Of a stretch of 30,771 bases of DNA, positions 12,514-30,771 are shown piece after piece. Position numbers and translations under genes: made by a program. Each line of letters starts with the position of its first letter. Positions within the stretch are counted from its first letter, which is position 1. This stretch comes from an uncultured Candidatus Saccharibacteria bacterium (GTDB lineage: Bacteria > Patescibacteriota > Saccharimonadia > Saccharimonadales > UBA4665), in the NCBI GenBank assembly GCA_964438085.1, contig CAYTIU010000001.1, positions 1 to 30,771 on the forward strand, given 5' to 3'. The notes under the pieces were generated by a model. That model was not told the origin of the DNA and did not search any database. It saw only the letters and a list, made by a program, of their open reading frames with translations.

Positions 12514-13107
12514 ATGTTTACACTACCAGATTTGACGTATAACTACGATGCGTTAGGAAAATATATCAGTAAAGATATCATGGAGCTGCACCACAGCAAG
12601 CATCACCAGACATATGTTGATAAATTAAATGCCGCACTCGAAAAAGCGCCCGAACTACAAGATAGGCCGCTTGCTGAACTTATTAGTAATCTCGATGCAG
12701 TACCTGAACAGATACGCGTAGCGGTGCGTAATCATGGCGGCGGACATTATAATCACACGCAATTTTGGCAATGGATGTCTCCAGAAGGCGGCGGCGAGCC
12801 AACTGGCGAACTAGCAGAGGCACTAAAAGAAAAATATGGCAGCTACCAGCAGTTTATTGACGCTTTCAAAGAAAAAGCACTGGGTGTTTTTGGTAGCGGC
12901 TGGGCATGGCTACAACCCGACCTATCTATTACAACCACCGCAAACCAGGATTCGCCAATTATGACAGGTGATAAGGAGCCGCTCCTCGGGCTTGATGTAT
13001 GGGAGCATGCTTACTACCTTGATTACACCTACAATCGAGGTGACTACATTGATGCGTGGTGGCATGTTGTAAACTGGCAAGAAGTAAGCCAGCGATTCGG
13101 TAGATAA
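12514..13107 (+). CDS. sodA: Superoxide dismutase, Mn/Fe family, Mn-type signature
   Basis: HHSKHH, NHGGGHYNH, NQD and DVWEHAYY motifs. Extended -10 TGG-TATACT (12479-12487) and SD GGAGG (12502-12506). Confidence 0.95.
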   Translation: MFTLPDLTYNYDALGKYISKDIMELHHSKHHQTYVDKLNAALEKAPELQDRPLAELISNLDAVPEQIRVAVRNHGGGHYNHTQFWQWMSPEGGGEPTGELAEALKEKYGSYQQFIDAFKEKALGVFGSGWAWLQPDLSITTTANQDSPIMTGDKEPLLGLDVWEHAYYLDYTYNRGDYIDAWWHVVNWQEVSQRFGR

Positions 13108-13120
13108 TCGCAGGCCAAGC

Positions 13121-14065
13121 TTAGATATATTGCTTTTTTTGAATATATAAAAATGCAAAAATTCCCGGTATAATCGGCAGCCAGTACGATGCCAGCCTGT
13201 AACTTAAGGCTATTGCCAGTGCTACGCCGCTATCAATGCCGTAGGCAACAAGCACTGCGGTAATGCCCGCTTCTGCGCCCAACACTCCGCCGGGCGTTGG
13301 TGTAACTGTTGCCGCAAATACGCCGCCAGAAAGTATAATAAGTATCGTTTCCAGGGGCAGAGTAACCGAGAAAGCTCTCATGACAAGCGTCAGTGCTAGC
13401 GCATGAAGCAGCGTATTGAGCATGGCGCACACGAGCGCACGGCTCACTGCCAGCTTTCGGGTTCTGTATAGTAATAGTGTTGCGAGTAACTGATGGAAAA
13501 AGCTGCTAATCCGCCCAGATGGTTTGTTACGATAAAAGATAACAAACAAGAGTCCTGCAATGCCGGTAACTACAGCTGCATATATCCCTATCTTTTGCAT
13601 ATCCAGCGTATGCTCGGGCAAAATGCTCATTCCAAAAACAAGCAGCACAAGAATAACAAGCATAATATGGGCACAAAGCCCTACAGCTGTGTTCATAGCA
13701 ACCACTGCAGATGAGCGAGCGAGCGTATGGTGCTGTTTATATAGAAAGCGTATAAAAAGGCTGATTCCGCCAATTCCTGCCGGTACAAGCCGGTTAATAA
13801 ACATGCCGGCATACTGTACAAGCGCTAATCTAGAAAATCGAATCGGCTTAAAAATTAACTGGCTATACGTCAAGGCAGCACTTAAGCCAGCGAGTAGTAT
13901 TGCCGCATAGGCAGCAACGATAAACTCAACTCGAGCCGTTTTAATGGCAGTAATACTGTTATGAAACTGCCCGAGCTGCGGAATAAGCACATATGCCGCA
14001 AGTACAATAATGATAAAAAATACAAGTTGACGCCAGTTGGCCTGAATAAGAGGTTTTTGTTTCAT
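13121..14065 (-). CDS. Flippase-like / lysylphosphatidylglycerol synthase TM domain protein (UPF0104)
   Basis: Multi-TM; N...PAG.GG, TPGG.G.AEA and LSYRL..YW.P..PG motifs. Confidence 0.85.
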   Translation of the reverse strand: MKQKPLIQANWRQLVFFIIIVLAAYVLIPQLGQFHNSITAIKTARVEFIVAAYAAILLAGLSAALTYSQLIFKPIRFSRLALVQYAGMFINRLVPAGIGGISLFIRFLYKQHHTLARSSAVVAMNTAVGLCAHIMLVILVLLVFGMSILPEHTLDMQKIGIYAAVVTGIAGLLFVIFYRNKPSGRISSFFHQLLATLLLYRTRKLAVSRALVCAMLNTLLHALALTLVMRAFSVTLPLETILIILSGGVFAATVTPTPGGVLGAEAGITAVLVAYGIDSGVALAIALSYRLASYWLPIIPGIFAFLYIQKKQYI

Positions 14066-14140
14066 AATGACACGTATAGTATAGCAAAACTTACCTGCAT
14101 ACTACGCAATACTAAGCGCTTATGCTATCATTATAGTAAT

Positions 14141-15037
14141 GTGAAACGTAATCTCTATCGGTTATTCTTAGGGGGGCTGTGCGTACTTGGTGCGTACCTT
14201 TTGTACTGGGTGTACCAAAACTGGCACATGCTAGATGTCTTAAATCCGGCCGGCTCTATTGCCAGCGATCAGCGTAATATATTATTTTTCGCGTGCGCAC
14301 TAAGCCTTATTGTGATTGTGCCGGTGTTTATCTTAATCTTCTTTATAGCCTGGAGATACCGCGATACCAACAAGAAACAGGTGAAGTATTTGCCAAAATG
14401 GGATCATAACCATAAGCTTGAAGCTATCTGGTGGGGAATTCCGATTATTTTAATCCTTATTCTAGCTGTTGTCACTTGGGTTAGTTCACATGCACTCGAC
14501 CCATATAAACCACTTGCTTCCACAAAGAAACCGCTCACTGTCCAAGTTGTTGCGCTCGACTGGAAATGGCTGTTTATCTACCCTGAGCAGGGAGTTGCGT
14601 CTGTTGGACACCTCGAGATACCTGAAGAAACGCCTATTAATTTCTTGATAACTTCAGATGCACCAATGAACTCTTTCTGGATACCTAAGCTCGGCGGACA
14701 AGTCTATGCTATGGCAGGTATGCAAACAAAACTCCATTTGATTGCTAATGAAACTGGCACCTATAATGGCATGTCTGCAAACATCAGCGGCGAGGGGTTT
14801 GCACATATGCGATTTACCGTGAACTCCGTAACTGAGGGTAAATTTGGCGAATGGGTGAATAATACGCGCCACTCACAAAATATTTTGAACAAGCAAACCT
14901 ATGAAGAGCTTGCTAAACCAAGTATCAAGCACCCAGTAACTCTCTACTCTTCGGTTGAGCCAGGCCTGTATGATACAGTGTTAATGAAATACATGGCTCC
15001 GCCAGCAGATAAGCGGGAGGAGAGCAGTAATGACTAA
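14141..15037 (+). CDS. cyoA: Cytochrome bo3 quinol oxidase subunit II
   Basis: LNPAG, WKWLFIYP, MNSFWIPKLGGQVYAM and SANISGEGF; no CuA Cys/His motif. GTG 14141 is preferred over the track ATG 13961, which overlaps the divergent gene. Confidence 0.95.
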   Translation: MKRNLYRLFLGGLCVLGAYLLYWVYQNWHMLDVLNPAGSIASDQRNILFFACALSLIVIVPVFILIFFIAWRYRDTNKKQVKYLPKWDHNHKLEAIWWGIPIILILILAVVTWVSSHALDPYKPLASTKKPLTVQVVALDWKWLFIYPEQGVASVGHLEIPEETPINFLITSDAPMNSFWIPKLGGQVYAMAGMQTKLHLIANETGTYNGMSANISGEGFAHMRFTVNSVTEGKFGEWVNNTRHSQNILNKQTYEELAKPSIKHPVTLYSSVEPGLYDTVLMKYMAPPADKREESSND

Positions 15038-15055
15038 AGAAAAACAGGGGACACT

Positions 15056-17017
15056 ATGCTAGGGCGACTAACTTGGGATGCATTACCGCATGACATGATT
15101 GTACTTGGCGGCGCTGTATCAATGATACTTGGTGCGCTTACAGTTATCGCTGCCTTAACGTACTTTAAAAAATGGAAATGGCTCTGGAAAAACTGGATTA
15201 CTTCTCTCGATCCGAAGAAAATCGGTATTATGTACGCCATTGTTTCAGGCTTGATGCTCCTTCGCGGCGCAACCGATGCCGCAATGATGCGGACACAGCA
15301 AATCCTTTCAACTGGCGATTCCCAAGGCATATTAAGCTCCGACCATTTCCAGCAAGTATTCTCCGCACACGGTACCATTATGATTTTCTTTGTTGCCATG
15401 GGGCTTATCTTTGCGGTTATGAACTTGATCGTACCACTACAGATAGGCGCCCGCGACGTAGCGTTTCCGTTTATGAACTCAGTGAGTTTCTGGTTGTTTG
15501 CAGCTGGCATGTTGCTCGTAAACCTTTCGTTAATGCTCGGTGAGTTTTCGGCGGCTGGTTGGCTAGCATACCCTCCATTATCCGGGCTCGAGTACAGCCC
15601 GGGCGTTGGTGTTGATTATTGGCTCTGGGCACTCCAGATTGCTGGGGTAGGAAGCTTGCTGTCAGGTATAAATTTCTTTGTGACTATACTCAAAATGCGC
15701 GCCCCAGGTATGACACTCATGAAAATGCCAATATTTGTTTGGAGTATCGTAGGTAGCGTTATATTGATCATGGCTGCATTTCCTATCCTAACCGCAACAC
15801 TAGGTATGCTCTCGCTTGATAGGCTACTCGGCATGCATTTCTTTACCTCAGGCTCCGGCGGCAATCCAATGATGTATATTAACTTGATTTGGGCGTGGGG
15901 ACACCCAGAAGTATATATTTTAGTGTTACCAGCGTTTGGAATTTTCTCAGAAGTAGTAGCCACATTCTCTGGTAAGCGATTGTTTGGCTACACCTCGATG
16001 GTTTGGGCAATTGCTGCTATTACATTCTTGTCATTCACCGTATGGCTCCATCACTTCTTCACTATGGGTTCTGGTGCTAATGTGAACGCTTTCTTCGGTA
16101 TTATGACGATGATTATTGCCGTTCCAACGGGTGTAAAAGTCTTTAACTGGCTCTTTACTATGTACCGCGGAAAAGTACGCTTTAAAACACCAATGCTTTG
16201 GTTTATGGGTTTTGTGACGTGCTTTACTATTGGTGGCGTAACAGGCGTACTTTTGGCTGTGCCAGCGATTGATTTTCAGGTACACAACAGCCTATTCCTT
16301 GTTGCACATTTCCATAACATGATTATCCCTGGAGTAGTGTTTGGTATGTTTGCCGGGCTTACCTATTGGTGGCCGAAATTCACTGGCTTTACGCTCAATG
16401 AAACACTCGGGAAATGTGCATTCTGGTGCTGGTTCGTTGGGTTCTTGTTGGCATTCATGCCGCTGTACGTACTTGGCTTTATGGGTGCTACAAGGCGAAT
16501 TGATCATTACGATGCATCGCTTGGCTGGCAGCCGCTCTTTATTGTTGCCGCTATTGGCGTAGCCGTTATCGGACTGGGTGTTGCATTCCAAATAGTACAA
16601 CTTGGCTACAGCATTTGGAAACGTAACGAAAACCGCGTCGGTGATGACCCATGGAACGCACGCACGCTCGAATGGAGCACCAGCTCGCCACCACCAGCTT
16701 ATAACTTTGCCACCTTGCCACAGGTAACCGAACGTGATGCGTTCTGGGAGATGAAAGAAAGCACGAAGAAACCTGATAAGCAAAAAATACAAGATATAGA
16801 AATGCCCAAAGATACTGGTGCCGGATTTATTATTGCCACCTTTTCACTTGTAGCTGGTTTTGCACTGGTGTGGCATATTTGGTGGTTGGCGCTTGTTGGC
16901 CTCGTTGGCATCATAACAACGCTCATAATTCACTTATCAAAAGACGATTTCGAGCACACAATAACTGCTAAAGAAATTTCCGCCACAGAGGCAGTGGCAA
17001 AAAGGAAGCACGCATGA
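15056..17017 (+). CDS. cyoB: Cytochrome bo3 quinol oxidase subunit I
   Basis: Heme/Cu ligands in SAHG, WGHPEVY, WLHH and AHFH; quinone-site motifs RGATD and HFQQ; proton-channel residues in RDVAFP and TGVK. Confidence 0.98.
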
Positions 17018-17601
17018 GCCAACATAAAGACACTCACCACGTAGACGCTACCTCGAAAACAATGTTTGGCTTTTGGTCGTATATCATGACTGATCTCATT
17101 CTCTTTGCAAGTATCTTTGCTACCTATGCAGTGCTACGCAACAACACGTTTGGCGGTCCATCTGGCAAAGACATCTTTGACATGCCGTTTGTCTTAACCG
17201 AAACGATGCTGCTGCTTACCAGCAGCTTTACTGCTGGCCTGGCAATGCTAGCAATCTACCGCAAGCATACGCGAGCTGCGTTGGCACTCTTTGCAATAAC
17301 ATTTGCACTCGGAGCTGGCTTCTTGGCTATGGAATTATACGAATTCAATCATCTCGTGCACGAAGGGTACAGTTGGCGAGAAAGCGCCTTCTTATCAGCA
17401 TTCTTTACACTTGTCGGTACGCATGGGTTACATATTTTATCTGGACTTATTTGGCTCGCGGTACTCATGTTCCAAATAAAACGCCGCGGCATTACCGTTC
17501 ACACCGCGCGGCGGGCAGGCTTATTTAGTTTATTCTGGCACTTCCTTGATATCGTCTGGATATTTATCTTTACATTTGTATATCTCATGGGGGTACTGTA
17601 A
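17014..17601 (+). CDS. cyoC: Cytochrome bo3 quinol oxidase subunit III
   Basis: [21 protein letters not shown] and FWHFLDIVW; ATGA overlap with cyoB. Confidence 0.96.
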
Positions 17602-17963
17602 TGGCAAAAAACACACAACACCACGGCACCGTTACCTCATACATTATTGGATTCACGCTGTCTGTCGCATTCACGTTACTTGCGTTTTATATCGCCACTA
17701 GCAACGGGCTCGCCGAACGCTCAGCATTCGTGCTCATTGTTATCCTAGCGATAGCCCAACTCCTCGTACAGCTCTTCTTTTTCCTCCATATGGGCAAAGA
17801 ATCCAAACCACGCTGGAATCTTATGATGTTCGGTTTTATGGCTGTGGTAATCGGTATCGTAGTTATTGGTTCGCTGTGGATTATGCATAATCTCGACTAC
17901 AATATGATGCCCCAGCATACTATGGACCAGCACATGCTAGAAGAGAGTAACAAAGGGTTTTAG
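17601..17963 (+). CDS. cyoD: Cytochrome bo3 quinol oxidase subunit IV
   Basis: YIIGF.LSV.FT, QL.FFLHM and GSLWIMHNL; TAATG overlap. Confidence 0.95.
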   Translation: MAKNTQHHGTVTSYIIGFTLSVAFTLLAFYIATSNGLAERSAFVLIVILAIAQLLVQLFFFLHMGKESKPRWNLMMFGFMAVVIGIVVIGSLWIMHNLDYNMMPQHTMDQHMLEESNKGF

Positions 17964-17965
17964 CC

Positions 17966-18835
17966 TTGTCAGTGCTACACAAGTATTACTTGCTCACAAA
18001 GCCCGGTATTGTACGCGGCAACCTCATGACAGCCGTTGCAGCTTTCTTTTTTGCTGCCAACGGTACTATAGATTGGCTGCTATTCGCAGCGATCGCGATT
18101 GGTACAACTTGTATCGTCGCATCTGGCTGCGTATTCAATAACTACCTCGATCGCGGTATCGATAAAGTGATGCTACGCACCCAAAAACGTTCGCTTGCCG
18201 CCGGAGATATCCCTAATATGCATGCTCTCGTATACGCAACTGTGCTTAGCATCATCGGCTTTGCCTGGCTCATTTTATTCACCAACATAATCACCGTACT
18301 GTTGGGGCTTATAGGTATTATTGGTTATGTATTGGTGTATGGCTGGGCAAAGCGGAACACTGTTCATAGTACGCTCATTGGCAGCATACCCGGCGCGACC
18401 TCGCTGACAGCCGGCTATACTGCCGTAACCGGGAGCTTCGACCTTATCGCATTACAGCTTTTTATTGTTATGGTCTGTTGGCAGATGCCACATTTTTACG
18501 CCATCGGCATATATAGGCGCAAAGATTATGCTGCCGCAGCACTGCCGATACTTTCCGTCAAAAAGGGCATTGCCGCCACCCGCCAAGAAACCCTCTTATA
18601 CATGATCGCGTTCGCTATTGCTACGTTTGGGTTATTCATCGTAGCCGATATGAGTTATACCTATTTAATTGTTATAGCACTGTGTAATATATGGTGGCTG
18701 CGTGTTGCGATACAAGGATTTAGCACCAAAGCAGGGAAAGCAACCATCACATGGGCGCATAAAATCTTTGGAATATCACTTTTGATACTGATGCTGTTTT
18801 CAGCTCTTATCGCGTTCAACTACTGGCTACCGTAA
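17966..18835 (+). CDS. cyoE: Protoheme IX farnesyltransferase (heme o synthase)
   Basis: LTKPGI, NNYLDRGID..M.RT..R and WQMPHF.A motifs; TTG start. Confidence 0.95.
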   Translation: MSVLHKYYLLTKPGIVRGNLMTAVAAFFFAANGTIDWLLFAAIAIGTTCIVASGCVFNNYLDRGIDKVMLRTQKRSLAAGDIPNMHALVYATVLSIIGFAWLILFTNIITVLLGLIGIIGYVLVYGWAKRNTVHSTLIGSIPGATSLTAGYTAVTGSFDLIALQLFIVMVCWQMPHFYAIGIYRRKDYAAAALPILSVKKGIAATRQETLLYMIAFAIATFGLFIVADMSYTYLIVIALCNIWWLRVAIQGFSTKAGKATITWAHKIFGISLLILMLFSALIAFNYWLP

Positions 18836-18939
18836 CCTAAAACAACACAGAAAAAACACAGCCTATAACTCTTCTTATTATAAGATTATACCATAGTTCT
18901 TATGGTAATACAATACCTAAGGAAAAGTAGAGAAACGTA

Positions 18940-20604
18940 CTAAAAGTTCTTGCGAATGTGCTTGAAAGAGTAATCCCAGGTAGCATTAGCCTTTTTGCGG
19001 GGGTTAAAGATACCGTCCGGGTCAAAAATATGCTTTGTTTCTTTGAAATAACCGAGAACCTTTTTGCCATACATTTGTTCAAGCCACGGACCGCGAACCA
19101 GGCCATCGTTATGCTCACCCGAGAGAGAGCCGCCGTATTTTAGGACAAGATTATTTACTTCTTTCATGGCAGGCAAGATCTTATCACGTTCTTCTTCTAT
19201 TTCGATGTTCATAAGGGGTATGATATGGAAATTACCGTCGCCCATATGTCCAGCAATGGTAGCAAAAAGCTTGTATTTCTTAATTATTTTTCTGATTTTA
19301 GGCAGGAATTCTGCAAGGTGTTCGGGGTTTACAATAAAATCGTCAATAAATGGGGCAGTGTGCTTGTCTTTAACTTTGCTGCGCAAGATCTGGAAACTAT
19401 GGCGGCGCATAATCCAAAACTTTTCACCTTTTGCCTCAGTTGGAGCCTCCTCAAACCCGGTGATGCCATAGTACTTGCTCTTAGATTCCAGTTCTTTACG
19501 TAAAGCATGGATTTTATCAGCTATTTTCTTAGTATCGTTCCCTTTGATCGAAACCATTAAGATAAGCTTCGGTATGCCTCGCAGGAGCATGAGTGCTTCT
19601 GGCGTAAGGCTCAAGAGAAGACGAACGAACTTCCGAGGCCCAAGTAACTTTAAGAACGCGGGCATGAACCTCATTGACAGCCAGAGCGTATTATCGTCAA
19701 AGGCTTCAAATCTGGATGGTTTTTTATCAACAACTACTTTTATGAGTTCGCCCAGGTGCTTCATGTCATTCATAAATATCACTAGCAAGCCCTCGTCAGA
19801 GCGCGCATCAGTAAGACGAAACTCTATATCGGTAATAAGGCCGAGCGTACCCTGGGCGCCTACAATAGCTTGTGTTAAGTCAAAAACACCCTTTTCGCGG
19901 TCCCAGACATTCCATAAATGGTAACCGGTTGAATCTTTGCTGACGTTAGGCTTGGCTGCCTTGATGGCGTCATAATTATCGTCAAGGAGTTTAAACATCT
20001 TCTGGTAGACTTCGCCCTCGAAGTCTTTTTGTGCCATTTTTTTGTCTAGCTCAGACTTAGTGAGCGGCTTAACAATACGCTTCACTCCATCGGCAAATAC
20101 AAATTCAAGTTGGTTAACAAAATCCTCGGCTTTGCCGTATTCGATAGATTTTTCGCCGCCTGAATTGTTGCTAACCATACCGCCAACCGTACAAAGCTCC
20201 CGAGAAGCTGGGTAAGTGGGCATAAGGACGCCTTTTTTCTTGGCTTCCGCATCAAAATCCCGGAAAAAAACGCCGGGCTGAACCTGGGCTGAGTGATCAT
20301 CAATGCGCTCGATCTTTGTGAAATACTTCTTAAAATCAACAATCACTGAATCGTTAATCGCGCCGCCGCTCATGTCAGTTCCGGCTGAGCGCCCAGTGAG
20401 AGAAAGGTTAGGGATATGCTTTTTTTCTTGCCGGGCAAGTTTTACTAAAATGGATACATCTTCAGTATCTTTTGGAAATACAATAAGTTCTGGCACGATT
20501 TCAAACAAGCTGGCATCGTGGCTGTAAAAATCTTTGGCGCTTGCACTGTCGTCGAGATCACCCTGAAAACCAGCGTCGCGTAATTTTTGTTTAAACCCGT
20601 CCAT
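18940..20604 (-). CDS. FAD-linked oxidase/dehydrogenase (GlcD/Dld/YdiJ-like 2-hydroxyacid dehydrogenase), no Fe-S tail
   Basis: FAD_binding_4 motifs RSAGTDMSGG, VQPGV and TVGGMVSNNSGG; C-terminal GHMGDGNFH, SGEHNDG and FDPDGIFNP. Confidence 0.88.
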   Translation of the reverse strand: MDGFKQKLRDAGFQGDLDDSASAKDFYSHDASLFEIVPELIVFPKDTEDVSILVKLARQEKKHIPNLSLTGRSAGTDMSGGAINDSVIVDFKKYFTKIERIDDHSAQVQPGVFFRDFDAEAKKKGVLMPTYPASRELCTVGGMVSNNSGGEKSIEYGKAEDFVNQLEFVFADGVKRIVKPLTKSELDKKMAQKDFEGEVYQKMFKLLDDNYDAIKAAKPNVSKDSTGYHLWNVWDREKGVFDLTQAIVGAQGTLGLITDIEFRLTDARSDEGLLVIFMNDMKHLGELIKVVVDKKPSRFEAFDDNTLWLSMRFMPAFLKLLGPRKFVRLLLSLTPEALMLLRGIPKLILMVSIKGNDTKKIADKIHALRKELESKSKYYGITGFEEAPTEAKGEKFWIMRRHSFQILRSKVKDKHTAPFIDDFIVNPEHLAEFLPKIRKIIKKYKLFATIAGHMGDGNFHIIPLMNIEIEEERDKILPAMKEVNNLVLKYGGSLSGEHNDGLVRGPWLEQMYGKKVLGYFKETKHIFDPDGIFNPRKKANATWDYSFKHIRKNF

Positions 20605-20696
20605 TTATACTCAAGCATAACCTGTATAGGCTATTTTTGCAACACGGTTATGGTTAGTGGTATACTACTGGTAAGAATGGGTCTGAATATATAGCT

Positions 20697-21893
20697 ATGG
20701 CGAAACAAAAAATAGTTGTGGTCGGTGGTGGATTTGGCGGTGTTAAGGCTGCGCTTGAACTGGCCGAAGACAATCGGTTCACTGTAACACTTGTATCAGA
20801 TAGGGATTGTTTTGAATACCACCCTACGCTTTATCGCACAGCAACCGGCGGCCTTACCAGCCAATCGCAAATTCCACTCAAGACAATTTTTACCGGTAAA
20901 CCAGTGAAGATTATTATTGATACAGCTACAAAACTTGATCGCAAGCAAAAAACACTTACCACCAAGGGTGGTAAAAAAATGAGTTACGACGACATTGTTT
21001 TATCACTCGGTACGGTTACTAATTACTTCGGTATTAAGGGTTTGGCGGAATATACGTTTGGTATAAAGTCAATTAAAGATATTGAGAAATTTAAATCGCA
21101 TATCCACCAGCAGCTTAATGACAAGCTTGAACCAGATTTGCGCTATATTATCGTTGGCGGCGGCCCAACAGGTGTTGAGCTTGCCGCAGCTTTGCCGTCA
21201 TATTTGTATCGCATTATGAAAAATCACGGTATTCGCGGGCGAAATGTTAAGGTACACCTGGTAGAGGCAGCGCCTCGTTTAATGCCAAATATGCCAAGAT
21301 CAACTTCGCGGGCAATTAGGCGCCGGTTGCGCATTTTGGGCGTTACGCTTCATCTTGGCAAGCCAGTTGAAGGCGCTACTGCCGACAGCTTAACTGTTGG
21401 TGGCAAATCTATTCGAAGCAACACCATTGTCTGGACAGCTGGAACTGCTAACAATCCGTTTTTTGCAACAAATAACTTCGCTTTTGGGCCACGTGGTAAA
21501 GTGGCAGTGAATGTGTACTTGCAGGCAGATGAGCATATATACGTACTTGGCGACAATGCAAACACCCCTTATAGCGGCATGGCGCAAACTGCCATATTGG
21601 ACGGCATGTTTGTAGCAGAAAATATTAAACGCGCAGCAAGCGGCAGGGACCTCAAACCTTACAAGCCAAAAAAACCTATCTATGCGACTCCTGTAGGATA
21701 TGGATGGGCAGCAGTGCTCTGGCGGAAAATGGAAATTTTTGGCATATTCGGTTGGGCGCTCCGTAAGGCAGCCGATGCAAAGGCATTTAGTGAACTCCAA
21801 CCAGCGCTCCAGGCAACTCGGCAATGGTTTACTGAATTCGGTGAGCAAGAAGACTGCAGCGTATGCAGTAAAGTGCTGACAAAAGCCAAATAG
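20697..21893 (+). CDS. ndh: Type II NADH:quinone oxidoreductase (NDH-2)
   Basis: Two Rossmann motifs VVGGGFGG and IVGGGPTGVE, acidic LVEA (NADH preference), LGD and AQ.A...G quinone-site motif. Confidence 0.85.
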   Translation: MAKQKIVVVGGGFGGVKAALELAEDNRFTVTLVSDRDCFEYHPTLYRTATGGLTSQSQIPLKTIFTGKPVKIIIDTATKLDRKQKTLTTKGGKKMSYDDIVLSLGTVTNYFGIKGLAEYTFGIKSIKDIEKFKSHIHQQLNDKLEPDLRYIIVGGGPTGVELAAALPSYLYRIMKNHGIRGRNVKVHLVEAAPRLMPNMPRSTSRAIRRRLRILGVTLHLGKPVEGATADSLTVGGKSIRSNTIVWTAGTANNPFFATNNFAFGPRGKVAVNVYLQADEHIYVLGDNANTPYSGMAQTAILDGMFVAENIKRAASGRDLKPYKPKKPIYATPVGYGWAAVLWRKMEIFGIFGWALRKAADAKAFSELQPALQATRQWFTEFGEQEDCSVCSKVLTKAK

Positions 21894-21925
21894 ACACTAG
21901 GCAGAGTGCTACAATAGAGATAGAT

Positions 21926-24900
21926 ATGGGAAATGAATTTGAAGCCGCCTATAAACTGGTGAGCAAAAACAAGGAGCAAAAAAAAGCGGTTGATACAACC
22001 GAAGGTCCGCTTTTGGTTATTGCAGGGCCGGGAACTGGAAAAACGCAAATACTCAGCGTGCGCGTTGGTAAGATTTTGCAAAATAATCCCACTATTCTGC
22101 CAAGCAATATTTTGTGCCTTACATTTACCGAAACTGGAGCTACAAATATGCGCGAACGGCTCACGCGTTTTATCGGGCAAGATGCGTACAGTGTGACTAT
22201 TAGTACGTACCATGCATTTGGTAGTGAGCTAATCCGGAGGTTTCCAGAATATTTCACCGAAACCCGTTTGCAAAATCCGGTTGACGAGCTTGGTAAATAT
22301 CAGATTTTCTCTGATATTGTTGACAGGCTAAGCTACCGAAACCCGCTCAAGCAGACACGACATCATATCCGTGATCTTATGAGTACGGTAAGCGAAGTAA
22401 AGCGTGCCTTACTTTCAAGCAGCGACCTTAGAAATATCGCCGAAGAAAATCTTGTAACTATACAGGCGCTTAATAAAGATTTGGCAGGTATCTACGCTGA
22501 TTTCAAAAGAATGCCACGCAAATTAGATGAAGCGCTACCGTATTTCATGCAAACACGCGAAGTGTTGGCTGGAGCTCTTCCGGCGCAACCGGCACATAAA
22601 AATTTCGGTAGCCTGGCAAGCGTTGCGCTACAAGAACTCGATACTGCGCTCGAGGCAGCAGAGTCTATGGGTAAGCCAAATGCATTAACTGCCTGGAAAA
22701 ATACCTGGCTTGCAAAGAGTAGTGATAATACTTTTGTACTCGTAGGGGAACTTGCATCTAGACGCCTACAGGCGCTTGCAGATATCCTAGATTCGTACCA
22801 AGCCGCGCTTGAATCACGCGGGCTCTATGATTTTGACGATATGATCCTACGTGCCATTGAAGCCTTGCAAAAGCATGATGATCTCAAGTATACGCTCCAG
22901 GAGCAGTACCAATACATTTTATTAGATGAATTTCAGGATACTAACAAATCACAATTACAACTTGTGCAACTACTTACCGATAATCCTGTGCACGAAGACC
23001 GTCCAAACGTTATGGCAGTGGGCGATGACGACCAGGCAATTTATGCATTCCAGGGCGCGCAATACTCTAATATGGTTGACTTTTATTCGCTTTATACAGA
23101 TGTTGCGTTAGTTAATTTAAGCAAGAATTACCGTTCCCATACGCATGTTTTAGAAACTGCCGCGCGTATCACCAGCCAAATTGAAAATCGAGTCTTTTCA
23201 AAACTCGAGAATATGACAAAACAGCTCGTTGCTGCAAACAAGGATTTACCAGCTGCCGAAATAGACCGAGTTGAGTTTGCAAGCGACATTGCACAGTATG
23301 ATTGGATTGCTGATCAGATCGAGCAAAAAATTAAAGCTGGCGTGAAGCCAAGCGAAATCGCGGTGCTCGCACCGCGACACAAACAACTGGAGCCTCTTGT
23401 TGCATGTCTCAATAACCGCGATATTCCACTGCGTTACGAGAAACGGGAAAACATCTTGGATGCGCCGGTGGTAAAGCAGATTATTATCATGAGTAAGCTT
23501 GTCCACGCCCTAGCTGACGAAAATTTGAGTGTTGCAAACGCGCTCTGGCCACAAGTGCTCAGTTTTGAGTTTTGGCAACTTTCAACCAGCCGTATCTGGG
23601 AGCTTTCGTGGCAAGTCCAAGATAGCAAGGGGCGTTCAAACTGGAGCAAAATACTTCTTGAAAATGAGGATACCGCACTGCGATCAGCAGCTTTACTCTT
23701 TTTAAAACTGGCGCATCTTGCCGGAAATACACACTACGAAACAATGTTGGATTATCTGATTGGCAACGCAAAACTTGATACCGGAGAAGCTGATTTACCG
23801 CAAGTACTCTCGCCGCTGCGCGACTACTATCTAAACAGCAATGTCCAAAAAAACTACGCTAACTTGTTTTATGAAACCATTTCACACATTACTGTACTAC
23901 GAGCTACGCTACATGAATATCAGAGTACGCAAGATACGGCATTACTGCTTAGTGATATGCTTACGCTCATAGAGCTGTATGAGTCTGCTGAACAGCGCAT
24001 GATAAACACCAGTCCTTACACACAACACGCCGAAGCAGTGCAGCTCATGACAGTGTTCAAGGCTAAAGGTCTTGAGTTTGAGCACGTCTTTTTACCATCA
24101 TGCCAGGATGATGTCTGGGGCGGCTCAGGTTACGGAGGCAGCAACAAACTTACGTTGCCAGCAAATATTATGCCCATACGCCACAGCGGCGCAACAGATG
24201 ACGAACGTTTGCGCATCTTCTTCGTAGCGATTACCCGGGCAAAATATGGGCTCCATATTTCTAGCTACACAAGCACATACGCTGGCAAGGCAACGAAACG
24301 TCTCAAATACCTTGACGAGCAGCAACAAACAGACCAAAGCTTTAAGACGCTTATACTACCTGAACCGCGCCAGACAGTCCGGCACGTCGACCATGAGCCG
24401 CCAACCATTGAGAGCCTGGAACTTAATTGGTATGCCCGCCACCTTGCATTTACTGGTGACGTTAAGCTCTATACGCTCCTCAAAGACCGTCTGGCGCTAT
24501 ATCAGCTAAGCCCAACGCATTTAAATACGTTTACCGACTTGCTCTATGGCGGGCCGCACGCGTTTTTCTTTAATATCTTGTTACGTTTTCCGCAAGCGCC
24601 TTCGGTTGACGGGCAATTTGGAAGCGCAATTCATGAGACATTGGAATGGTTCCAGTATCAAGTTGATGAACAGGGCAAACTACCCGATAAGCAAGCCGTG
24701 ATAAGCTTTTTTACGCATCGCATGAAAGCTAAAAAACTGCCAAAGTGGCAGCTCGATATAGAAGTTGAACGCGGCGAGAGCGCACTTAAAAGCTATCTTA
24801 CGCAGCGCGGGCATATCTTTAAGCCAGGCGATAAAACTGAGGTTAATTTCCGTAATGAAAATGTAGTGATCGACGAAATACGCATGGCTGGCAAAATAGA

Positions 24901-25288
24901 TCGGCTCGAAATTGACACAAAACAAAAGACTATCACTGTTATTGACTACAAAACGGGGAAGAGTTTTTCGTCATGGGCAAACGACGCTAAGCTCCATAAA
25001 TATAAACAGCAGCTGTATTGCTATAAGCTACTTATAGAACATTCGAACACTTACCGTGATTATACGGTTACTGAGGGGCGGTTAGAATTTATTGAACCAA
25101 ACGATGAAGGTAAGATTATGCACTTGCCATTGGCTTTCGAAGATGCTGAGTTGGCAAAAACCAGGAAACTTTTACAGGCTTTATGGCACGCCGTCCAGGA
25201 GTTACAGTTTCCAGACACAAGCAGCTATCCCGCCACACTCACGGGTATAAAAGCCTTTGAAAAAGAGCTACTCGATAATCTCGAGTAG
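21926..25288 (+). CDS. UvrD/PcrA-family helicase fused to a PD-(D/E)xK nuclease (AddA/AdnB-like)
   Basis: AGPGTGKT, LTFT, LLDEFQD, VGDDDQAIY, NYRS, KAKGLEF and FVAITRAK; C-terminal GKIDR...IDYKTG...QLYCY. Confidence 0.93.
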   Translation: MGNEFEAAYKLVSKNKEQKKAVDTTEGPLLVIAGPGTGKTQILSVRVGKILQNNPTILPSNILCLTFTETGATNMRERLTRFIGQDAYSVTISTYHAFGSELIRRFPEYFTETRLQNPVDELGKYQIFSDIVDRLSYRNPLKQTRHHIRDLMSTVSEVKRALLSSSDLRNIAEENLVTIQALNKDLAGIYADFKRMPRKLDEALPYFMQTREVLAGALPAQPAHKNFGSLASVALQELDTALEAAESMGKPNALTAWKNTWLAKSSDNTFVLVGELASRRLQALADILDSYQAALESRGLYDFDDMILRAIEALQKHDDLKYTLQEQYQYILLDEFQDTNKSQLQLVQLLTDNPVHEDRPNVMAVGDDDQAIYAFQGAQYSNMVDFYSLYTDVALVNLSKNYRSHTHVLETAARITSQIENRVFSKLENMTKQLVAANKDLPAAEIDRVEFASDIAQYDWIADQIEQKIKAGVKPSEIAVLAPRHKQLEPLVACLNNRDIPLRYEKRENILDAPVVKQIIIMSKLVHALADENLSVANALWPQVLSFEFWQLSTSRIWELSWQVQDSKGRSNWSKILLENEDTALRSAALLFLKLAHLAGNTHYETMLDYLIGNAKLDTGEADLPQVLSPLRDYYLNSNVQKNYANLFYETISHITVLRATLHEYQSTQDTALLLSDMLTLIELYESAEQRMINTSPYTQHAEAVQLMTVFKAKGLEFEHVFLPSCQDDVWGGSGYGGSNKLTLPANIMPIRHSGATDDERLRIFFVAITRAKYGLHISSYTSTYAGKATKRLKYLDEQQQTDQSFKTLILPEPRQTVRHVDHEPPTIESLELNWYARHLAFTGDVKLYTLLKDRLALYQLSPTHLNTFTDLLYGGPHAFFFNILLRFPQAPSVDGQFGSAIHETLEWFQYQVDEQGKLPDKQAVISFFTHRMKAKKLPKWQLDIEVERGESALKSYLTQRGHIFKPGDKTEVNFRNENVVIDEIRMAGKIDRLEIDTKQKTITVIDYKTGKSFSSWANDAKLHKYKQQLYCYKLLIEHSNTYRDYTVTEGRLEFIEPNDEGKIMHLPLAFEDAELAKTRKLLQALWHAVQELQFPDTSSYPATLTGIKAFEKELLDNLE

Positions 25289-25314
25289 CTCTAGTTATAG
25301 AAAACGCACTATTT

Positions 25315-26049
25315 TTATTTCTTTTTCTTGGCTGTCGTTTTCTTGCGTGTAGCTTTAGTCTTAGCTTTAGCTTTAGCTGCAGGTTCAGCAACAATAGCTG
25401 CTTTACCAGCTCTTGCTACTACTGATGGCTTGTTAGTCGAAGCAAAGAGTAGGTTATAAAGATTGAAACCAATAATTGCGCCAAGGACAGGACCGAGTAC
25501 ATAGGTACCCCATACCCATGAGTGTGCGCCAAGTGCCACTGCTGGGTTTAGGAAACCAGAAGATGCCACAGATGCCACCATAATACCAAGTGTTAGTGAG
25601 CCGCCAATTGTGAGCGCTTTTGCTGCATCATCGAGCTTTTGGAATAGTGCAGCAGCAATACCAAAGGCAAATACTGCCGTACCCACTACTTCTGCTACGA
25701 GAATTTTTGTGTCATATTCGCCAGCGTTAGCCCAACTCTTTTCGGTTAGGTAACTAAAGAGCGCGTATGCTGCTAAACCACCGAGCAACTGAACAGCAAT
25801 GTAGAGCACTGTTTGCAACGTACTTAATTTACGTATTGTCCAAAGTCCAACCGCAATCGCCGGGTTAATAACAGCTCCAGATACGTTGCCAATTGCAAAT
25901 ACCATCAAAAGCATCGCAAGGCCGGCGCCAAACGACACAAAGTATCCTATCCCAATATTTGATGTACTTACTGCTAATACCGTGAGTGCGAGCAGTGCCG
26001 TCCCGAGAAACTCCGCCACGAGCGCAGCAACCTTTTGCTTAGTAAACAT
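25315..26049 (-). CDS. MIP-family channel (aquaporin-like) with atypical filter and Lys/Ala-rich tail
   Basis: AEFLGT and AEVVGT motifs, two NPA boxes (GAVINPAI, GFLNPAVA); SD GGAGG. Confidence 0.9.
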   Translation of the reverse strand: MFTKQKVAALVAEFLGTALLALTVLAVSTSNIGIGYFVSFGAGLAMLLMVFAIGNVSGAVINPAIAVGLWTIRKLSTLQTVLYIAVQLLGGLAAYALFSYLTEKSWANAGEYDTKILVAEVVGTAVFAFGIAAALFQKLDDAAKALTIGGSLTLGIMVASVASSGFLNPAVALGAHSWVWGTYVLGPVLGAIIGFNLYNLLFASTNKPSVVARAGKAAIVAEPAAKAKAKTKATRKKTTAKKKK

Positions 26050-26115
26050 AGAAACCCTCCGTTAGTTATATGGGTATAGCATAACGACTCAGATAAAAAA
26101 CCGCAAGGGATTTAT

Positions 26116-26531
26116 TTAGCGGCGGCGGCGCAGTTGGGCAACGTGCAAGCGAACCTCTTGGCGATCTACGATACTTTGCGCATGCTCAAGTTCAGTTTGG
26201 TTTTTTGCGTTTGTAAGCATAGCTTGTGCGGTGGCACGAGCTTTTTCGGCTTCTTGCTCATTAATATCATCACCAGCATCAGCCTCATCGACTAATACCG
26301 TAACTCCATCACCTGTAATTTCAAGTACACCGCCGTATGTCGCAAAGTGCTCTAGCAGTTGGTCTGGATCATTCTTTTCTTTACGAATTGTCACAACCCC
26401 AGGTTTTAAAACACTAATTAATGGCTCGTGACCAGGGAATACGGTAATTTCGCCAGCCGCGGTTGGCAGCGTGATAGAATACGCATCTTGGCTAAACTTT
26501 ACGCCTTCTAGTGCTACTAATTGAAACTTCA

Positions 26532-26532
<1 letters not shown>
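26116..26532 (-). CDS. atpC: ATP synthase F1 epsilon
   Basis: LPT..GE.TVFPGH.PL motif, C-terminal helical hairpin and operon position. Confidence 0.95.
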
Positions 26533-28117
<1,585 letters not shown>

Positions 28118-28990
28118 TTATTTTATTGCCTCCGTACCGCCAGATATTTCAGCTAATTCTTGCGTAATTGCTGCCTGGCGCGCCGTATTAAACTCTAACG
28201 TTAAATCCTCTACAATATCGGTTGCGTTATCGGTTGCGTTCTTCATAGCTAGCATGCGCATTGAGTGCTCACTAGCAGCCGTTTCAAGCAGTATTTGATA
28301 GAGCTGGGCTTCCAGTAGCCGTAAGGTTGCTGCGTCTAAAAGCTCTTCAACAGAAGGTTCTATCTCAGCGCTGGCAATGTCGGCAGACACTTCTTCGGTC
28401 TCAAAGCCTGCAGGCAAAAGCGGCTGCACTTTAACTTCTTGACGGATAGTTGATATAAATTGGGTGTAAATAATATCAACTGCATCTATTTTTTTCTCAA
28501 CAAACAACTCAACGACTGTATTGAGCAGGGGGCGCAATTCATTCGCAGTTGGCTTGTCAGGAAAATCTTGGTATACCGCTATAACATCTTGTTTTGCTAA
28601 GCGGGTCGCTGCATTAGCAGCTTGACGCCCAACTGCAATTAAAGAGGTTTTTACGTGCTTTTTATCGTCTTCGAGCAACTCCCGTACCGTTTGGCGAGTA
28701 ATATTTGAGTTATAGGCACCAGCAAGCGTTTTATCGCTGGCTATCATGATGATTGCCCGATTTTTAATTGGCCGCTCTTCAAACAAAGCGCCTCCTTGTG
28801 CAGCTGTCGTGCCAAGGCTTTTGAGATGTGTTAGTATCTCGCGGGCGAGCCGTGCATACTCACGAGGACCCTCAGCAGCTTCTTGCGCCCGGCGCAGTTT
28901 ACTCGCAGCGACCATCTGCATGGCACGTGTAATCTGCTTCGTATTCTTAACCGAAGTAATCCGTCGTTTAATTTGCTGCCGAGATGCCAT
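28118..28990 (-). CDS. atpG: ATP synthase F1 gamma
   Basis: SVKNTKQITRAMQMVAASKL and SEHSMRMLAMKNATDNA...RQAAITQE. Confidence 0.98.
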   Translation of the reverse strand: MASRQQIKRRITSVKNTKQITRAMQMVAASKLRRAQEAAEGPREYARLAREILTHLKSLGTTAAQGGALFEERPIKNRAIIMIASDKTLAGAYNSNITRQTVRELLEDDKKHVKTSLIAVGRQAANAATRLAKQDVIAVYQDFPDKPTANELRPLLNTVVELFVEKKIDAVDIIYTQFISTIRQEVKVQPLLPAGFETEEVSADIASAEIEPSVEELLDAATLRLLEAQLYQILLETAASEHSMRMLAMKNATDNATDIVEDLTLEFNTARQAAITQELAEISGGTEAIK

Positions 28991-28995
28991 ATATA

Positions 28996-30525
28996 CTAAT
29001 CCTTAAATCCTTTAGCAATTTTTTTAGCAGCTTCAGTAATTGTTTTGACAATTTCGTCAGTCGGCTTATCGCCCTTGTTCAACGTTTTAACTACGTCTTT
29101 ATGGTCATTCTCAATGACTGCCAAAATCTGCTCTTGCGCATCTTTAATAGCCCCAATAGATACCTCATCAAGTGCGCCATGAGTCGCAGCAAGCAAGGTA
29201 ACAACCTGTTCAGCAATACTCATTGGCTGATATTGTTTCTGCTTAAGCAGCTCTGTTAAGCGCTGGCCGCGATCAATCGTCTTCTTAGTTTCAGGATCAA
29301 GATCACTGCCAAACTGAGCAAAGCTTGCAAGCTCACGGAACTGCGCTAATTCAAGGCGCAGGCTTCCGGCAACGCTCTTAACAGCTTTTGTCTGTGCGCT
29401 ACCACCCACACGTGATACTGAAAGTCCAACCGAAATTGCCGGGCGCACGCCCTGATAGAACAAGTTTGTTTCAAGGAAAATCTGGCCGTCAGTAATAGAA
29501 ATTACGTTGGTTGGAATGTATGCTGAAATATCACCAGCCTGCGTTTCGATAATTGGCAGGGCAGTTAGTGAACCACCGCCAAGCGTATCGTTAAGTTTCG
29601 CTGCACGCTCCAATAAACGAGAATGAAGGTAGAAGACATCGCCTGGATACGCCTCTCGTCCTGGCGGGCGGCGAAGCAAGAGCGACATCTGGCGGTAAGC
29701 AACCGCGTGTTTAGAGAGATCATCAAAGATGATAAGCGCATGCTCGCCATTATCGCGGAAATATTCGCCCATCGCTGTACCAGCATACGGTGCGAGGTAG
29801 AGCAGTGGAGCCGGATCTGCGGGACTGGTAGCGATCACAATAGTCTGATCCATCACGCCTTCGCGTTTTAGGCGCTCTACAAGTGCAGCAACCTTTGATA
29901 GTTTCTGCCCAACTGCAACATATACGTTAATCACGCCTGTCTTTTGCTTGGCTTGGTTGATCATAGTGTCAATTGCAATTGCAGTTTTACCTGTTTGGCG
30001 GTCGCCAATAATAAGCTCACGCTGGCCGCGACCAATTGGCACCATAGTATCGATTGCCATAATACCGGTCATGAGTGGCTCATGGACGCTCTTGCGATCC
30101 ATCACACCTGGAGCAGAACGCTCAATAAGACCATTCTGTTTGGTTTTAATAGAACCCTTGCCATCAAGCGGGCGCCCGAGCGGGTCGACTACGCGCCCAA
30201 CGAGTTCTGGACCAACCGGAACAGATAATACTTCACCTGTAAGCGTTACTTGCGCGCCTGCGGTTACCTCAGCATCATCGCCTAAAATTACTGCGCCAAT
30301 TTCGTCTTCAAGTAGGTTCAATGCAAACGCATCAACCTTGCCTCCATCAAGCGTGTCGATTTGTACCACGCTATTATAGCCAGCTTCACGTAAACCATAA
30401 ATCCACGCCACGCCATCACCGACACGGGTTACAATACCGCTTTTTTCTAAGCCTTCGCGATGTTCAAGCTTACTGATCGCATCGCGTAATTCTTGGGAAA
30501 GTTCTTTAATTGCTAATTCTGCCAC
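28996..30525 (-). CDS. atpA: ATP synthase F1 alpha
   Basis: [28 protein letters not shown] and SVSRVG. Confidence 0.99.
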
Positions 30526-30537
30526 GTATAACTCCTC

Positions 30538-30771
30538 TTATAATTTTGTCGTCGCTACCAACTGCTTTAATTTACTCCGTACCGAACTGTCGAATGTATT
30601 GCTCGGGGTATATACAACCACACCACCAATCATATCTTCATCAATAGTTTCACTCGTGATAATAACTGACGAAGCTTGCTCAGCTCGCTTGATAAAATCA
30701 ACTAACTGCGACCGCGTGTGGTCATCTGCCGGGCGGGCAGTCGTCATGTGTGTTGATACAACGCCGTATTT
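30538..30771 (-). CDS. atpH: ATP synthase delta, C-terminal part (runs off window edge)
   Basis: Frame open to 30771 (KYGVVSTHMTTARP...); IDEDMIGGVVV...FDSSVRSKLKQL is the typical delta C-terminus, directly upstream of atpA. Confidence 0.85.
   Translation of the reverse strand, partial: KYGVVSTHMTTARPADDHTRSQLVDFIKRAEQASSVIITSETIDEDMIGGVVVYTPSNTFDSSVRSKLKQLVATTKL

Follow-up and report, generated by a model that had tools for sequence, protein, structure and literature searches.

Cytochrome bo operons have been described in Saccharibacteria on several occasions. Kantor et al. (2013) reported a complete operon with intact residues and an adjacent type II NADH dehydrogenase (NDH-2) in TM7, and read it as serving oxygen scavenging (PMC3812714). 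Starr et al. (2018) set out a linear chain leading from NDH-2 through scavenged quinone to a bo3 oxidase with scavenged heme, together with an F-ATPase (PMC6031116). The part of Nicolas et al. (2021) used here describes cyo operons in soil members of the Candidate Phyla Radiation (CPR), with an associated oxidoreductase open reading frame (ORF), no quinone synthesis genes and an inferred lateral origin from Proteobacteria or Chlamydiae (PMC8407418). In a 2024 genome survey, over half of the environmental Saccharibacteria had the complex, and a study from 2025 names the families in which it occurs. The present analysis concerns a further such locus, cyoABCDE with its neighbouring dehydrogenase and ATP synthase genes, in the first 30,771 bases (the window) of a 51,998-base contig from an uncultured Saccharimonadia metagenome-assembled genome (MAG), labelled G000. 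The assembly comprises 816 kb in 66 contigs and is 92.1% complete and 0.05% contaminated. A sequence-only reading of the window had proposed a closed chain from NADH or hydroxyacid to O2 to ATP, and had noted that cyo operons were already known in some Saccharibacteria; the publications of 2013, 2018 and 2021, the last as far as the part used here extends, bear out the latter point.

The idea of such a respiratory chain is already known, having been published since 2013, and is ordinary for the lineage; the window adds one more example of a question posed that year. At a probability of roughly 55%, we consider the cluster to be the standard respiratory module of environmental Saccharimonadia, encoding what would be an energy-conserving chain. 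In this chain, NDH-2, and probably also a FAD-linked flavoenzyme, would reduce a membrane quinone that is not of the cell's own making. The bo3 oxidase would oxidize the quinol, reduce O2 to water and pump protons, using imported heme b, part of which would be converted to heme O by CyoE. The proton gradient would drive the ATP synthase encoded 7 kb downstream, or would spare the ATP that a fermenter spends on its gradient, and NAD+ would be regenerated alongside the electron flow to O2. The enzymes of the closed chain proposed earlier are indeed present and intact; the electron flow, the import of cofactors and the use made of the gradient are what we infer.

The locus was compared with the described systems. 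Like RAAC3_TM7 (PMC3812714), the window genome has a complete bo operon with intact residues, an adjacent NDH-2 gene and an otherwise fermentative background; it differs in having a FAD-linked 2-hydroxyacid dehydrogenase gene between cyoE and ndh and in the atp operon 7 kb downstream. Candidatus Teamsevenus rhizospherense (PMC6031116) shares with it the same chain, CyoE as the sole step of the heme pathway, an F-type ATPase and a superoxide dismutase (SOD). In that organism there is a Ni-SOD, together with a NuoL-like protein, a blue-copper protein and several ubiG/ubiE-like genes; searches of G000 turned up none of these. According to the part of PMC8407418 used here, soil CPR cyo operons resemble the window in their E. 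coli gene order, in the extra oxidoreductase at several loci and in the co-occurrence of NDH and F-type ATPase; in that part, the oxidoreductase is not identified as a dehydrogenase resembling half of YdiJ and paired with NDH-2, and replacement of bo3 by cytochrome bd beside that pair is not noted. A literature search for Saccharibacteria together with the hydroxyacid dehydrogenase/NDH-2 pair returned nothing specific. What the present comparison adds is the NDH-2-cyo linkage across most of the class, the divergent pair formed by the YdiJ-half-like dehydrogenase and NDH-2, a swap to cytochrome bd in one genome and the finding of HemB in none of 251 sampled genomes. The details of the donor pair and of oxidase swapping are modest additions.

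Genes were called using an ORF listing together with Pfam and NCBIfam profile searches (Table 1). The genes named in the sequence-only reading were all recovered intact, at or near the positions assigned to them. CyoA, B, C, D and E each exceeded a TIGR or NF equivalog cut-off in NCBIfam. The longest ORF for cyoA starts at 13961; because this frame runs into the divergent upstream gene and because the NCBIfam match begins at residue 91, the true start is probably the GTG at 14141. CyoB matched E. coli CyoB (8f68/1fft) with 910 bits and was approximately 60% identical to enterobacterial CyoB, as measured against Enterobacter. In an alignment with enterobacterial CyoB, 19 of 19 checked residues were kept (E. 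coli numbering): the ligands of heme b, heme o3 and CuB (H106, H421, H419, H284, H333 and H334) with the cross-linked Y288; the D-channel and K-channel residues D135, N124, N142, E286, K362 and T359; all four residues of the high-affinity quinol site (R71, D75, H98 and Q101); and the heme-propionate arginines R481 and R482. With all checked proton-channel residues kept, the bo3 oxidase is shown by homology to be of a predicted pump-competent type.

The periplasmic cupredoxin domain of CyoA contains no Cys and therefore cannot hold CuA. The protein scored above the cut-off of the CyoA profile and below that of the CoxB profile in NCBIfam. Searches for heme A synthase (COX15/CtaA) found none in G000, nor in four genomes of its family that are 99-100% complete. 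Based on the presence of CyoE and the failure to find CtaA, the oxidase is assigned to the bo3 rather than the aa3 type. The equivalog cut-offs and the 19 CyoB residues thus substantiate the earlier call of a complete, proton-pumping-type bo3 oxidase accompanied by heme o synthase. E. coli cytochrome bo3 (PDB 1fft, 8f68) has the same gene order, metal ligands, proton-channel residues and quinol-site residues, and subunit II lacks CuA in both. In contrast to E. coli, the Saccharimonadia host makes neither heme nor quinone, and CyoA of the window has no canonical lipobox.

Two candidate donor enzymes are encoded downstream of cyoE as a divergent pair separated by 92 bp. The closest structures to the NDH-2 candidate in the PDB were Bacillus subtilis YjlD and Caldalkalibacillus thermarum NDH-2 (E values of 1e-41 to 1e-42), and both Rossmann GxGxxG motifs are kept, as GGGFGG and GGGPTG. 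The protein retains its earlier standing as a quinone-reductase candidate. Its C-terminus is rich in Trp, Phe and Lys and scored weakly in a simple hydrophobic-moment scan. Upstream of ndh, a single promoter-like site was located at 20637-20666; shuffled sequence contained more sites of this kind than the real one. Promoter and terminator scans of the interval between cyoE and the FAD-dehydrogenase gene yielded nothing convincing.

The FAD-linked enzyme is collinear with YdiJ positions 18-542 in NCBIfam, its best match being the FAD half of YdiJ-type D-2-hydroxyglutarate dehydrogenases; its PDB relatives are D-lactate dehydrogenases and D2HGDH. An AF2 model (pLDDT 83) gave TM-scores of 0.82-0.83 to YdiJ-type proteins and 0.68-0.72 to D-lactate dehydrogenases and GlcD. 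In E. coli YdiJ (P77748), the FAD-binding and cap domains, including a helical insert, superpose on the window protein over residues 3-537 with a TM-score of 0.82; the two differ in that the window protein has no Fe-S/CCG half, and their sequence identity is 24%. Because the 4Fe-4S/CCG half is missing, the enzyme is not classed as a member of the YdiJ family; it is like the FAD half of YdiJ. The insert, a conserved basic-hydrophobic stretch of three helices at residues ~304-341, gave a modest signal in the hydrophobic-moment scan, and the protein has no transmembrane segment. Identification as a D-2-hydroxyacid dehydrogenase is well supported and upholds the enzyme class named earlier; the accompanying role of quinone reductase is a plausible one, in which quinone would be the acceptor. 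G000 also encodes a paralog of 32% identity (contig C7:22034-23593), and paralogs of this type (~35% identity) are present in most of the Saccharimonadia sampled, among them lineages that lack cyo or NDH-2.

To place the locus in its class, an even sample of 251 Saccharimonadia genomes was searched, and 39 cyoB-centred loci were read for gene order. Orthologs of the FAD dehydrogenase were counted at a best E value below 1e-150. In the 39 loci, the order of cyoABCDE never varied, and the operon was complete in most cases. CyoB occurred in 86 of the 251 genomes, and in 10 of 11 within the window's own family; the corresponding totals were 128 for NDH-2, 120 for the FAD-dehydrogenase ortholog and 18 for cytochrome bd. 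Each of the two donors was present in 82 of the 86 cyo-bearing genomes. By a hand count from coordinates, among genomes that are kin and not independent, NDH-2 lay less than 10 kb from cyoB in ~56 of the 86, from many families, and the remainder were mostly on separate contigs. The two donor genes form a divergent pair, ~70-240 bp apart, in many lineages. This pair lies downstream of cyoE, as in the window, in G067, G233, G163, G212, G244 and L009, and upstream of cyoA in G154, G079, G188, G203, G240, G094, G151 and others. In all 11 same-family genomes that bear cyo, G000 included, cyo, NDH-2 and the FAD dehydrogenase fall within 10 kb. In G058, which is without cyo, cydA directly adjoins the donor pair, and in G251 cytochrome bd, bo3 and the donor pair are found inside 14 kb. 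Together, these arrangements support a predicted functional tie of the two donors to a quinol oxidase, although the kinship of the genomes means that Fisher values for co-occurrence make the association look stronger than it is.

The linkage of the remaining genes is narrower. The full order cyo-dehydrogenase-ndh-addA-MIP-atp recurs solely in G004 (L009), G067 and G233; atpD is 30-43 kb from cyoB in G002 and G003 and apparently on another contig in G001 and G005. The Fe/Mn SOD gene lies on other contigs in G067 and G233, and stands beside cyo in the window genome only. Across families, SOD and cyo do not go together: in f25, 29 of 32 genomes have the SOD and 1 of 32 has cyo, and in f27 the respective counts are 1 and 21 of 26. 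The proximity of the atp and SOD genes is local history and not evidence for a circuit. The earlier argument that clustering favours a functional circuit thus holds for cyo, NDH-2 and the FAD dehydrogenase, which are linked across many families, and is not supported for atp, adjacent only in G000 and three close relatives, or for SOD, adjacent in the window only.

The window contains atpC, atpD, atpG, atpA and part of atpH, with the Fo genes lying beyond its end. It stops at a 10-N scaffold gap (C1:30772-30781) inside atpH, across which the reading frame runs on. The gap is bordered on each side by the identical 9-mer AAATACGGC; the two ends probably overlap, the gap being an assembly artefact. 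Past the gap, the same contig carries the rest of atpH, then atpF, atpE, atpB and atpI, followed by a glutaredoxin gene. Eight ATP synthase subunits (a, c, b, delta, alpha, gamma, beta and epsilon) plus atpI are therefore present, and the F1Fo enzyme that had been placed in the window has its F1 half there and its Fo half just outside, on the same contig. Helix 2 of subunit c carries an Asp in the sequence VDA without a neighbouring Ser or Thr, a site that may be of the H+-coupling type. A 64-residue acidic ORF in the 195-nt gap between atpG and atpD (27923-28117, minus strand) was rejected as an atp-operon gene: it is not conserved, and in L088 and L095 atpG and atpD abut, with no similar peptide.

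G000 also encodes a second, divergent F1-like ATPase cluster of seven genes, which spans a contig break (C13:17054-20001, then C10:1-3522; L108:7054-10001 and L109:1-3522). The first gene encodes a c-like protein of 295 residues, with a signal peptide, a C-terminal two-helix hairpin and a GRNP loop, and with no acidic residue in helix 2. The second encodes a b-like protein of 225 residues, in which a single transmembrane helix is combined with a coiled coil. These are followed by weakly delta/OSCP-like, alpha-like, gamma-like, beta-like (41% identical to AtpD) and epsilon-like genes; no subunit a was recognisable in the cluster. Relatives too carry extra beta-like and alpha-like copies. The cluster recalls the seven-gene "F1-like X0" ATPases of mycoplasmas, described as mycoplasma-specific (PMC3369863), and a literature search found no mention of a cluster of this type in Patescibacteria.

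The supply of cofactors was examined at the genome level, using searches in which control genomes were positive. HemB, ferrochelatase, MenA, MenB, UbiD and cytochrome bd were not found in the whole of G000; MenA and UbiD were likewise not found in the four same-family genomes mentioned above, and HemB was found in none of the 251 sampled genomes of the class, 210 of which are of high quality. The earlier observation that the window holds no gene for quinone or heme b synthesis therefore extends well beyond the window. A search for FPP synthase, suggested by the same reading, found a short-chain prenyl diphosphate synthase gene adjoining uppS, so farnesyl diphosphate (FPP) for CyoE can be made from isopentenyl diphosphate (IPP). 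Neither IspH nor mevalonate diphosphate decarboxylase turned up in G000. Candidates for DXS were split-transketolase-like frames of 287 residues scoring 35-47 bits and were not convincing. Two further UbiA-family proteins (C23:10742-11422 and C19:5122-5814; L084 and L085) were rejected as quinone prenyltransferases: they had no MenA/UbiA match, their NCBIfam matches were weak and generic, chlorophyll-synthase-like or GGGP-like, and their neighbours were uninformative. Matches to UbiE were short and of a generic methyltransferase kind. If the oxidase works, supply from outside would be the sole reading left: heme and quinone, and probably isoprenoid precursors as well, would come from a host or the surroundings.

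The host was assigned to Saccharimonadia, within the CPR/Patescibacteria, based on its small genome, its in-group relatives and its missing biosynthetic pathways. In the species-level genome collection, the nearest relatives of CyoB were MAGs named Candidatus Saccharibacteria or Saccharimonadia (64-70% identity), with Chlamydiae and Proteobacteria next at ~60-65%; the top relatives of the FAD dehydrogenase were likewise named Saccharibacteria. With a 0.82-Mb genome that is 92% complete and a closest CyoB from Saccharibacteria MAGs, the CPR host claimed earlier is borne out, and the case in which that reading would fail, a non-CPR genome with full cofactor pathways, does not apply to G000. Sequence of the cyo stretch was present in four DNA metagenome runs, all of one study; the runs that matched the cyoA-to-ndh stretch or cyoB alone included none of RNA, which speaks neither for nor against expression.

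In a quick maximum-likelihood tree built from 98 CyoB sequences, every Saccharimonadia row fell into one of two groups: a 33-row clade (99% SH-aLRT), which also takes in one Kaiserbacteria row and an unnamed MAG, and a 4-row clade, which also takes in a Paceibacterota row. Both stand apart from the Proteobacteria clade (100% SH-aLRT), with Chlamydiae in between. The tree agrees with the lateral-transfer origin given in the part of Nicolas et al. (2021) used here (PMC8407418). Lateral acquisition of an E. coli-like cyo operon is likewise part of our best explanation, as a predicted event. CyoB of the window grouped with rows of another family (98% SH-aLRT) and apart from the same-family genomes in which the gene order is the same (compared: L088, L095, L098, L006 and L017), which hints at exchange of the cyo operon within Saccharimonadia.

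Other explanations were weighed against an energy-conserving chain. A non-functional relic, or a proteobacterial contaminant introduced by binning, is very improbable. Either would fit a cell that cannot make the needed cofactors and a CyoB that is ~60% identical to that of Proteobacteria. However, the contig has the GC content of the whole genome (0.443), contamination is 0.05%, and the gene order is shared with other Saccharimonadia genomes, closed ones included. Moreover, the frames are intact, all catalytic residues persist across the class, where identity is 55-71%, and the Saccharimonadia CyoB branch is separated from the Proteobacteria clade as described above. Synteny and conservation effectively refute this explanation. 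A stronger contender, although still one that we consider unlikely, is O2 scavenging and NAD+ recycling in an essentially fermentative cell, in which no significant ATP would be formed and F1Fo would act mainly as a proton-pumping ATPase. This was the original reading of such loci and is still often cited (PMC3812714; as detoxification in PMC9938205). It is consistent with the lack of complex I, of bc1 and of a tricarboxylic acid cycle-type donor set, with the non-pumping nature of NDH-2 and with the inconsistent linkage of the atp operon to cyo. Most Saccharimonadia, moreover, have F1Fo without the oxidase (AtpD was found in 5 of 5 relatives searched, and cyo in 86 of 251 genomes). Nevertheless, the bo3 oxidase keeps all D-channel and K-channel residues for pumping, so O2 reduction would build a gradient regardless. 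As judged from the oxidases of E. coli, the low-affinity bo3 is a poorer scavenger of O2 than cytochrome bd, and yet cyo is approximately five times commoner than bd in the class (86 versus 18 of 251). Scavenging and energy conservation are, in any case, not mutually exclusive.

The acceptor of the FAD-linked enzyme bears on how many donors the oxidase has. The enzyme could be a D-2-hydroxyglutarate/D-lactate dehydrogenase or oxidase that uses O2 or some other carrier, leaving NDH-2 as the sole donor to the oxidase and making the pairing a matter of co-regulation. We regard this as improbable, about on a par with scavenging. The protein is 554 residues long and stops at the point from which YdiJ continues into its Fe-S/CCG half, and a CCG-domain protein was not found in G000 or in the four good same-family genomes. 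The lack of a transmembrane segment, the modest hydrophobicity, the occurrence of orthologs in 38 sampled genomes without cyo and the near-universal paralog are also in keeping with another acceptor. Conversely, the divergent pairing with NDH-2 is kept across many families, beside cyo or, in G058, beside cydA; the ortholog accompanies cyo in 82 of 86 genomes; and the conserved basic-hydrophobic helical insert is shared with the quinone-linked YdiJ. The missing Fe-S half and CCG-domain protein also count against an energy-conserving chain with two donors, and several further points weigh on the same side. In the quinone-site motif of NDH-2, AQxAxQ, the second Gln is replaced by Leu (AQTAIL). 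Both donors occur without cyo in 22 sampled genomes, 3 of which have bd, and the donors are therefore not strictly in need of a terminal oxidase. Adjacency of the atp operon is confined to G000 and three close relatives. The supply of quinone and heme is hypothetical, and absences in G000 alone are soft at 92% completeness.

A fuller version of the energy-conserving chain, which we advance tentatively and consider rather less probable than the chain in its general form, is a cofactor-parasitic respiration. In this version, NDH-2 and a D-lactate/D-2-hydroxyglutarate dehydrogenase, docked at the membrane and having lost the Fe-S half of YdiJ, would both feed host quinone; bo3 and, in some lineages, bd, loaded with host heme, would be interchangeable; and hydroxyacids excreted by the host would be turned into a gradient and then ATP. 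If this is true, what is new lies in the donor pair as such and in its occurrence in oxidase-less genomes. More generally, if such chains work, some CPR bacteria respire with host-derived cofactors, so not all are obligate fermenters. Respiration of this kind would bear on CPR life in activated sludge, in groundwater and in soil that is oxic. For heterologous assays, the concrete targets are the oxidase operon, NDH-2 and the flavoenzyme.

Table 1. Features of the window, with positions numbered from its first base.
Feature	Coordinates	Strand	Basis or remark
Fe/Mn-family SOD	12514..13107	+	Sod_Fe_N and Sod_Fe_C; best NCBIfam match SodA [Mn]
LPG_synthase_TM-family membrane protein, divergent from cyoA	13121..14065	-	Pfam PF03706, 88 bits
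cyoA, quinol oxidase subunit II	14141..15037	+	TIGR01433 CyoA, 293.9 bits (cut-off 266.2)
cyoB, subunit I (heme b, heme o3, CuB)	15056..17017	+	TIGR02843, 1074 bits (cut-off 1020)
cyoC, subunit III, 4-nt overlap with cyoB	17014..17601	+	TIGR02842, 256.3 bits (cut-off 223.75)
cyoD, subunit IV	17601..17963	+	TIGR02847, 104.2 bits (cut-off 81.45)
cyoE, heme O synthase (protoheme IX farnesyltransferase)	17966..18835	+	NF003348, 304.9 bits (cut-off 285); TIGR01473, 247 bits (cut-off 210)
FAD-linked D-2-hydroxyacid dehydrogenase, 554 aa	18940..20604	-	Pfam FAD_binding_4 and FAD-oxidase_C
ndh, NDH-2, 398 aa	20697..21893	+	Pyr_redox_2; best solved relatives YjlD and C. thermarum NDH-2
AddA/UvrD-like helicase with PD-(D/E)XK nuclease, 1120 aa	21926..25288	+	Pfam; syntenic in L009, L088 and L095
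MIP-family channel	25315..26049	-	Pfam MIP, 76.6 bits
atpC, F1 epsilon	26116..26532	-	Pfam ATP-synt_DE_N
atpD, F1 beta	26532..27923	-	Pfam; 74-81% identical to relatives
atpG, F1 gamma	28118..28990	-	Pfam ATP-synt, 282.8 bits
atpA, F1 alpha	28996..30525	-	Pfam
atpH (delta), 3' part	30538..30771	-	OSCP, 42.8 bits, above cut-off

The gene list of the 18-kb cluster proposed earlier is thus correct; its contiguity is not, as three unrelated genes interrupt it (LPG_synthase_TM, AddA/UvrD and MIP). The LPG_synthase_TM gene was considered as a cyo accessory and rejected: in some genomes of the same family, homologues are 0.3-11 kb away from cyoE, and their position is not fixed. The AddA/UvrD gene belongs to DNA repair; it accompanies the block in close relatives without being part of the respiratory chain. 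In close relatives, the MIP gene likewise goes with the ndh-addA-atp block. Lactic acid or H2O2 can pass through some bacterial aquaglyceroporins, and it is conceivable that the MIP channel supplies substrate to the hydroxyacid dehydrogenase. The SOD contains the patterns GGGHYNH and ANQD, and GGGHxNH and NQD are Mn-type patterns; together with the top NCBIfam match, this signature supports the Mn-SOD gene named in the sequence-only reading. The SOD, AddA and MIP genes are neighbours rather than parts of the chain.

Elsewhere in the window, positions 6126-8315 of the minus strand encode a bifunctional trehalose-6-phosphate synthase/phosphatase (Glyco_transf_20 and Trehalose_PPase). The RAAC3 TM7 genome shares this synthase/phosphatase fusion with the window genome (PMC3812714).

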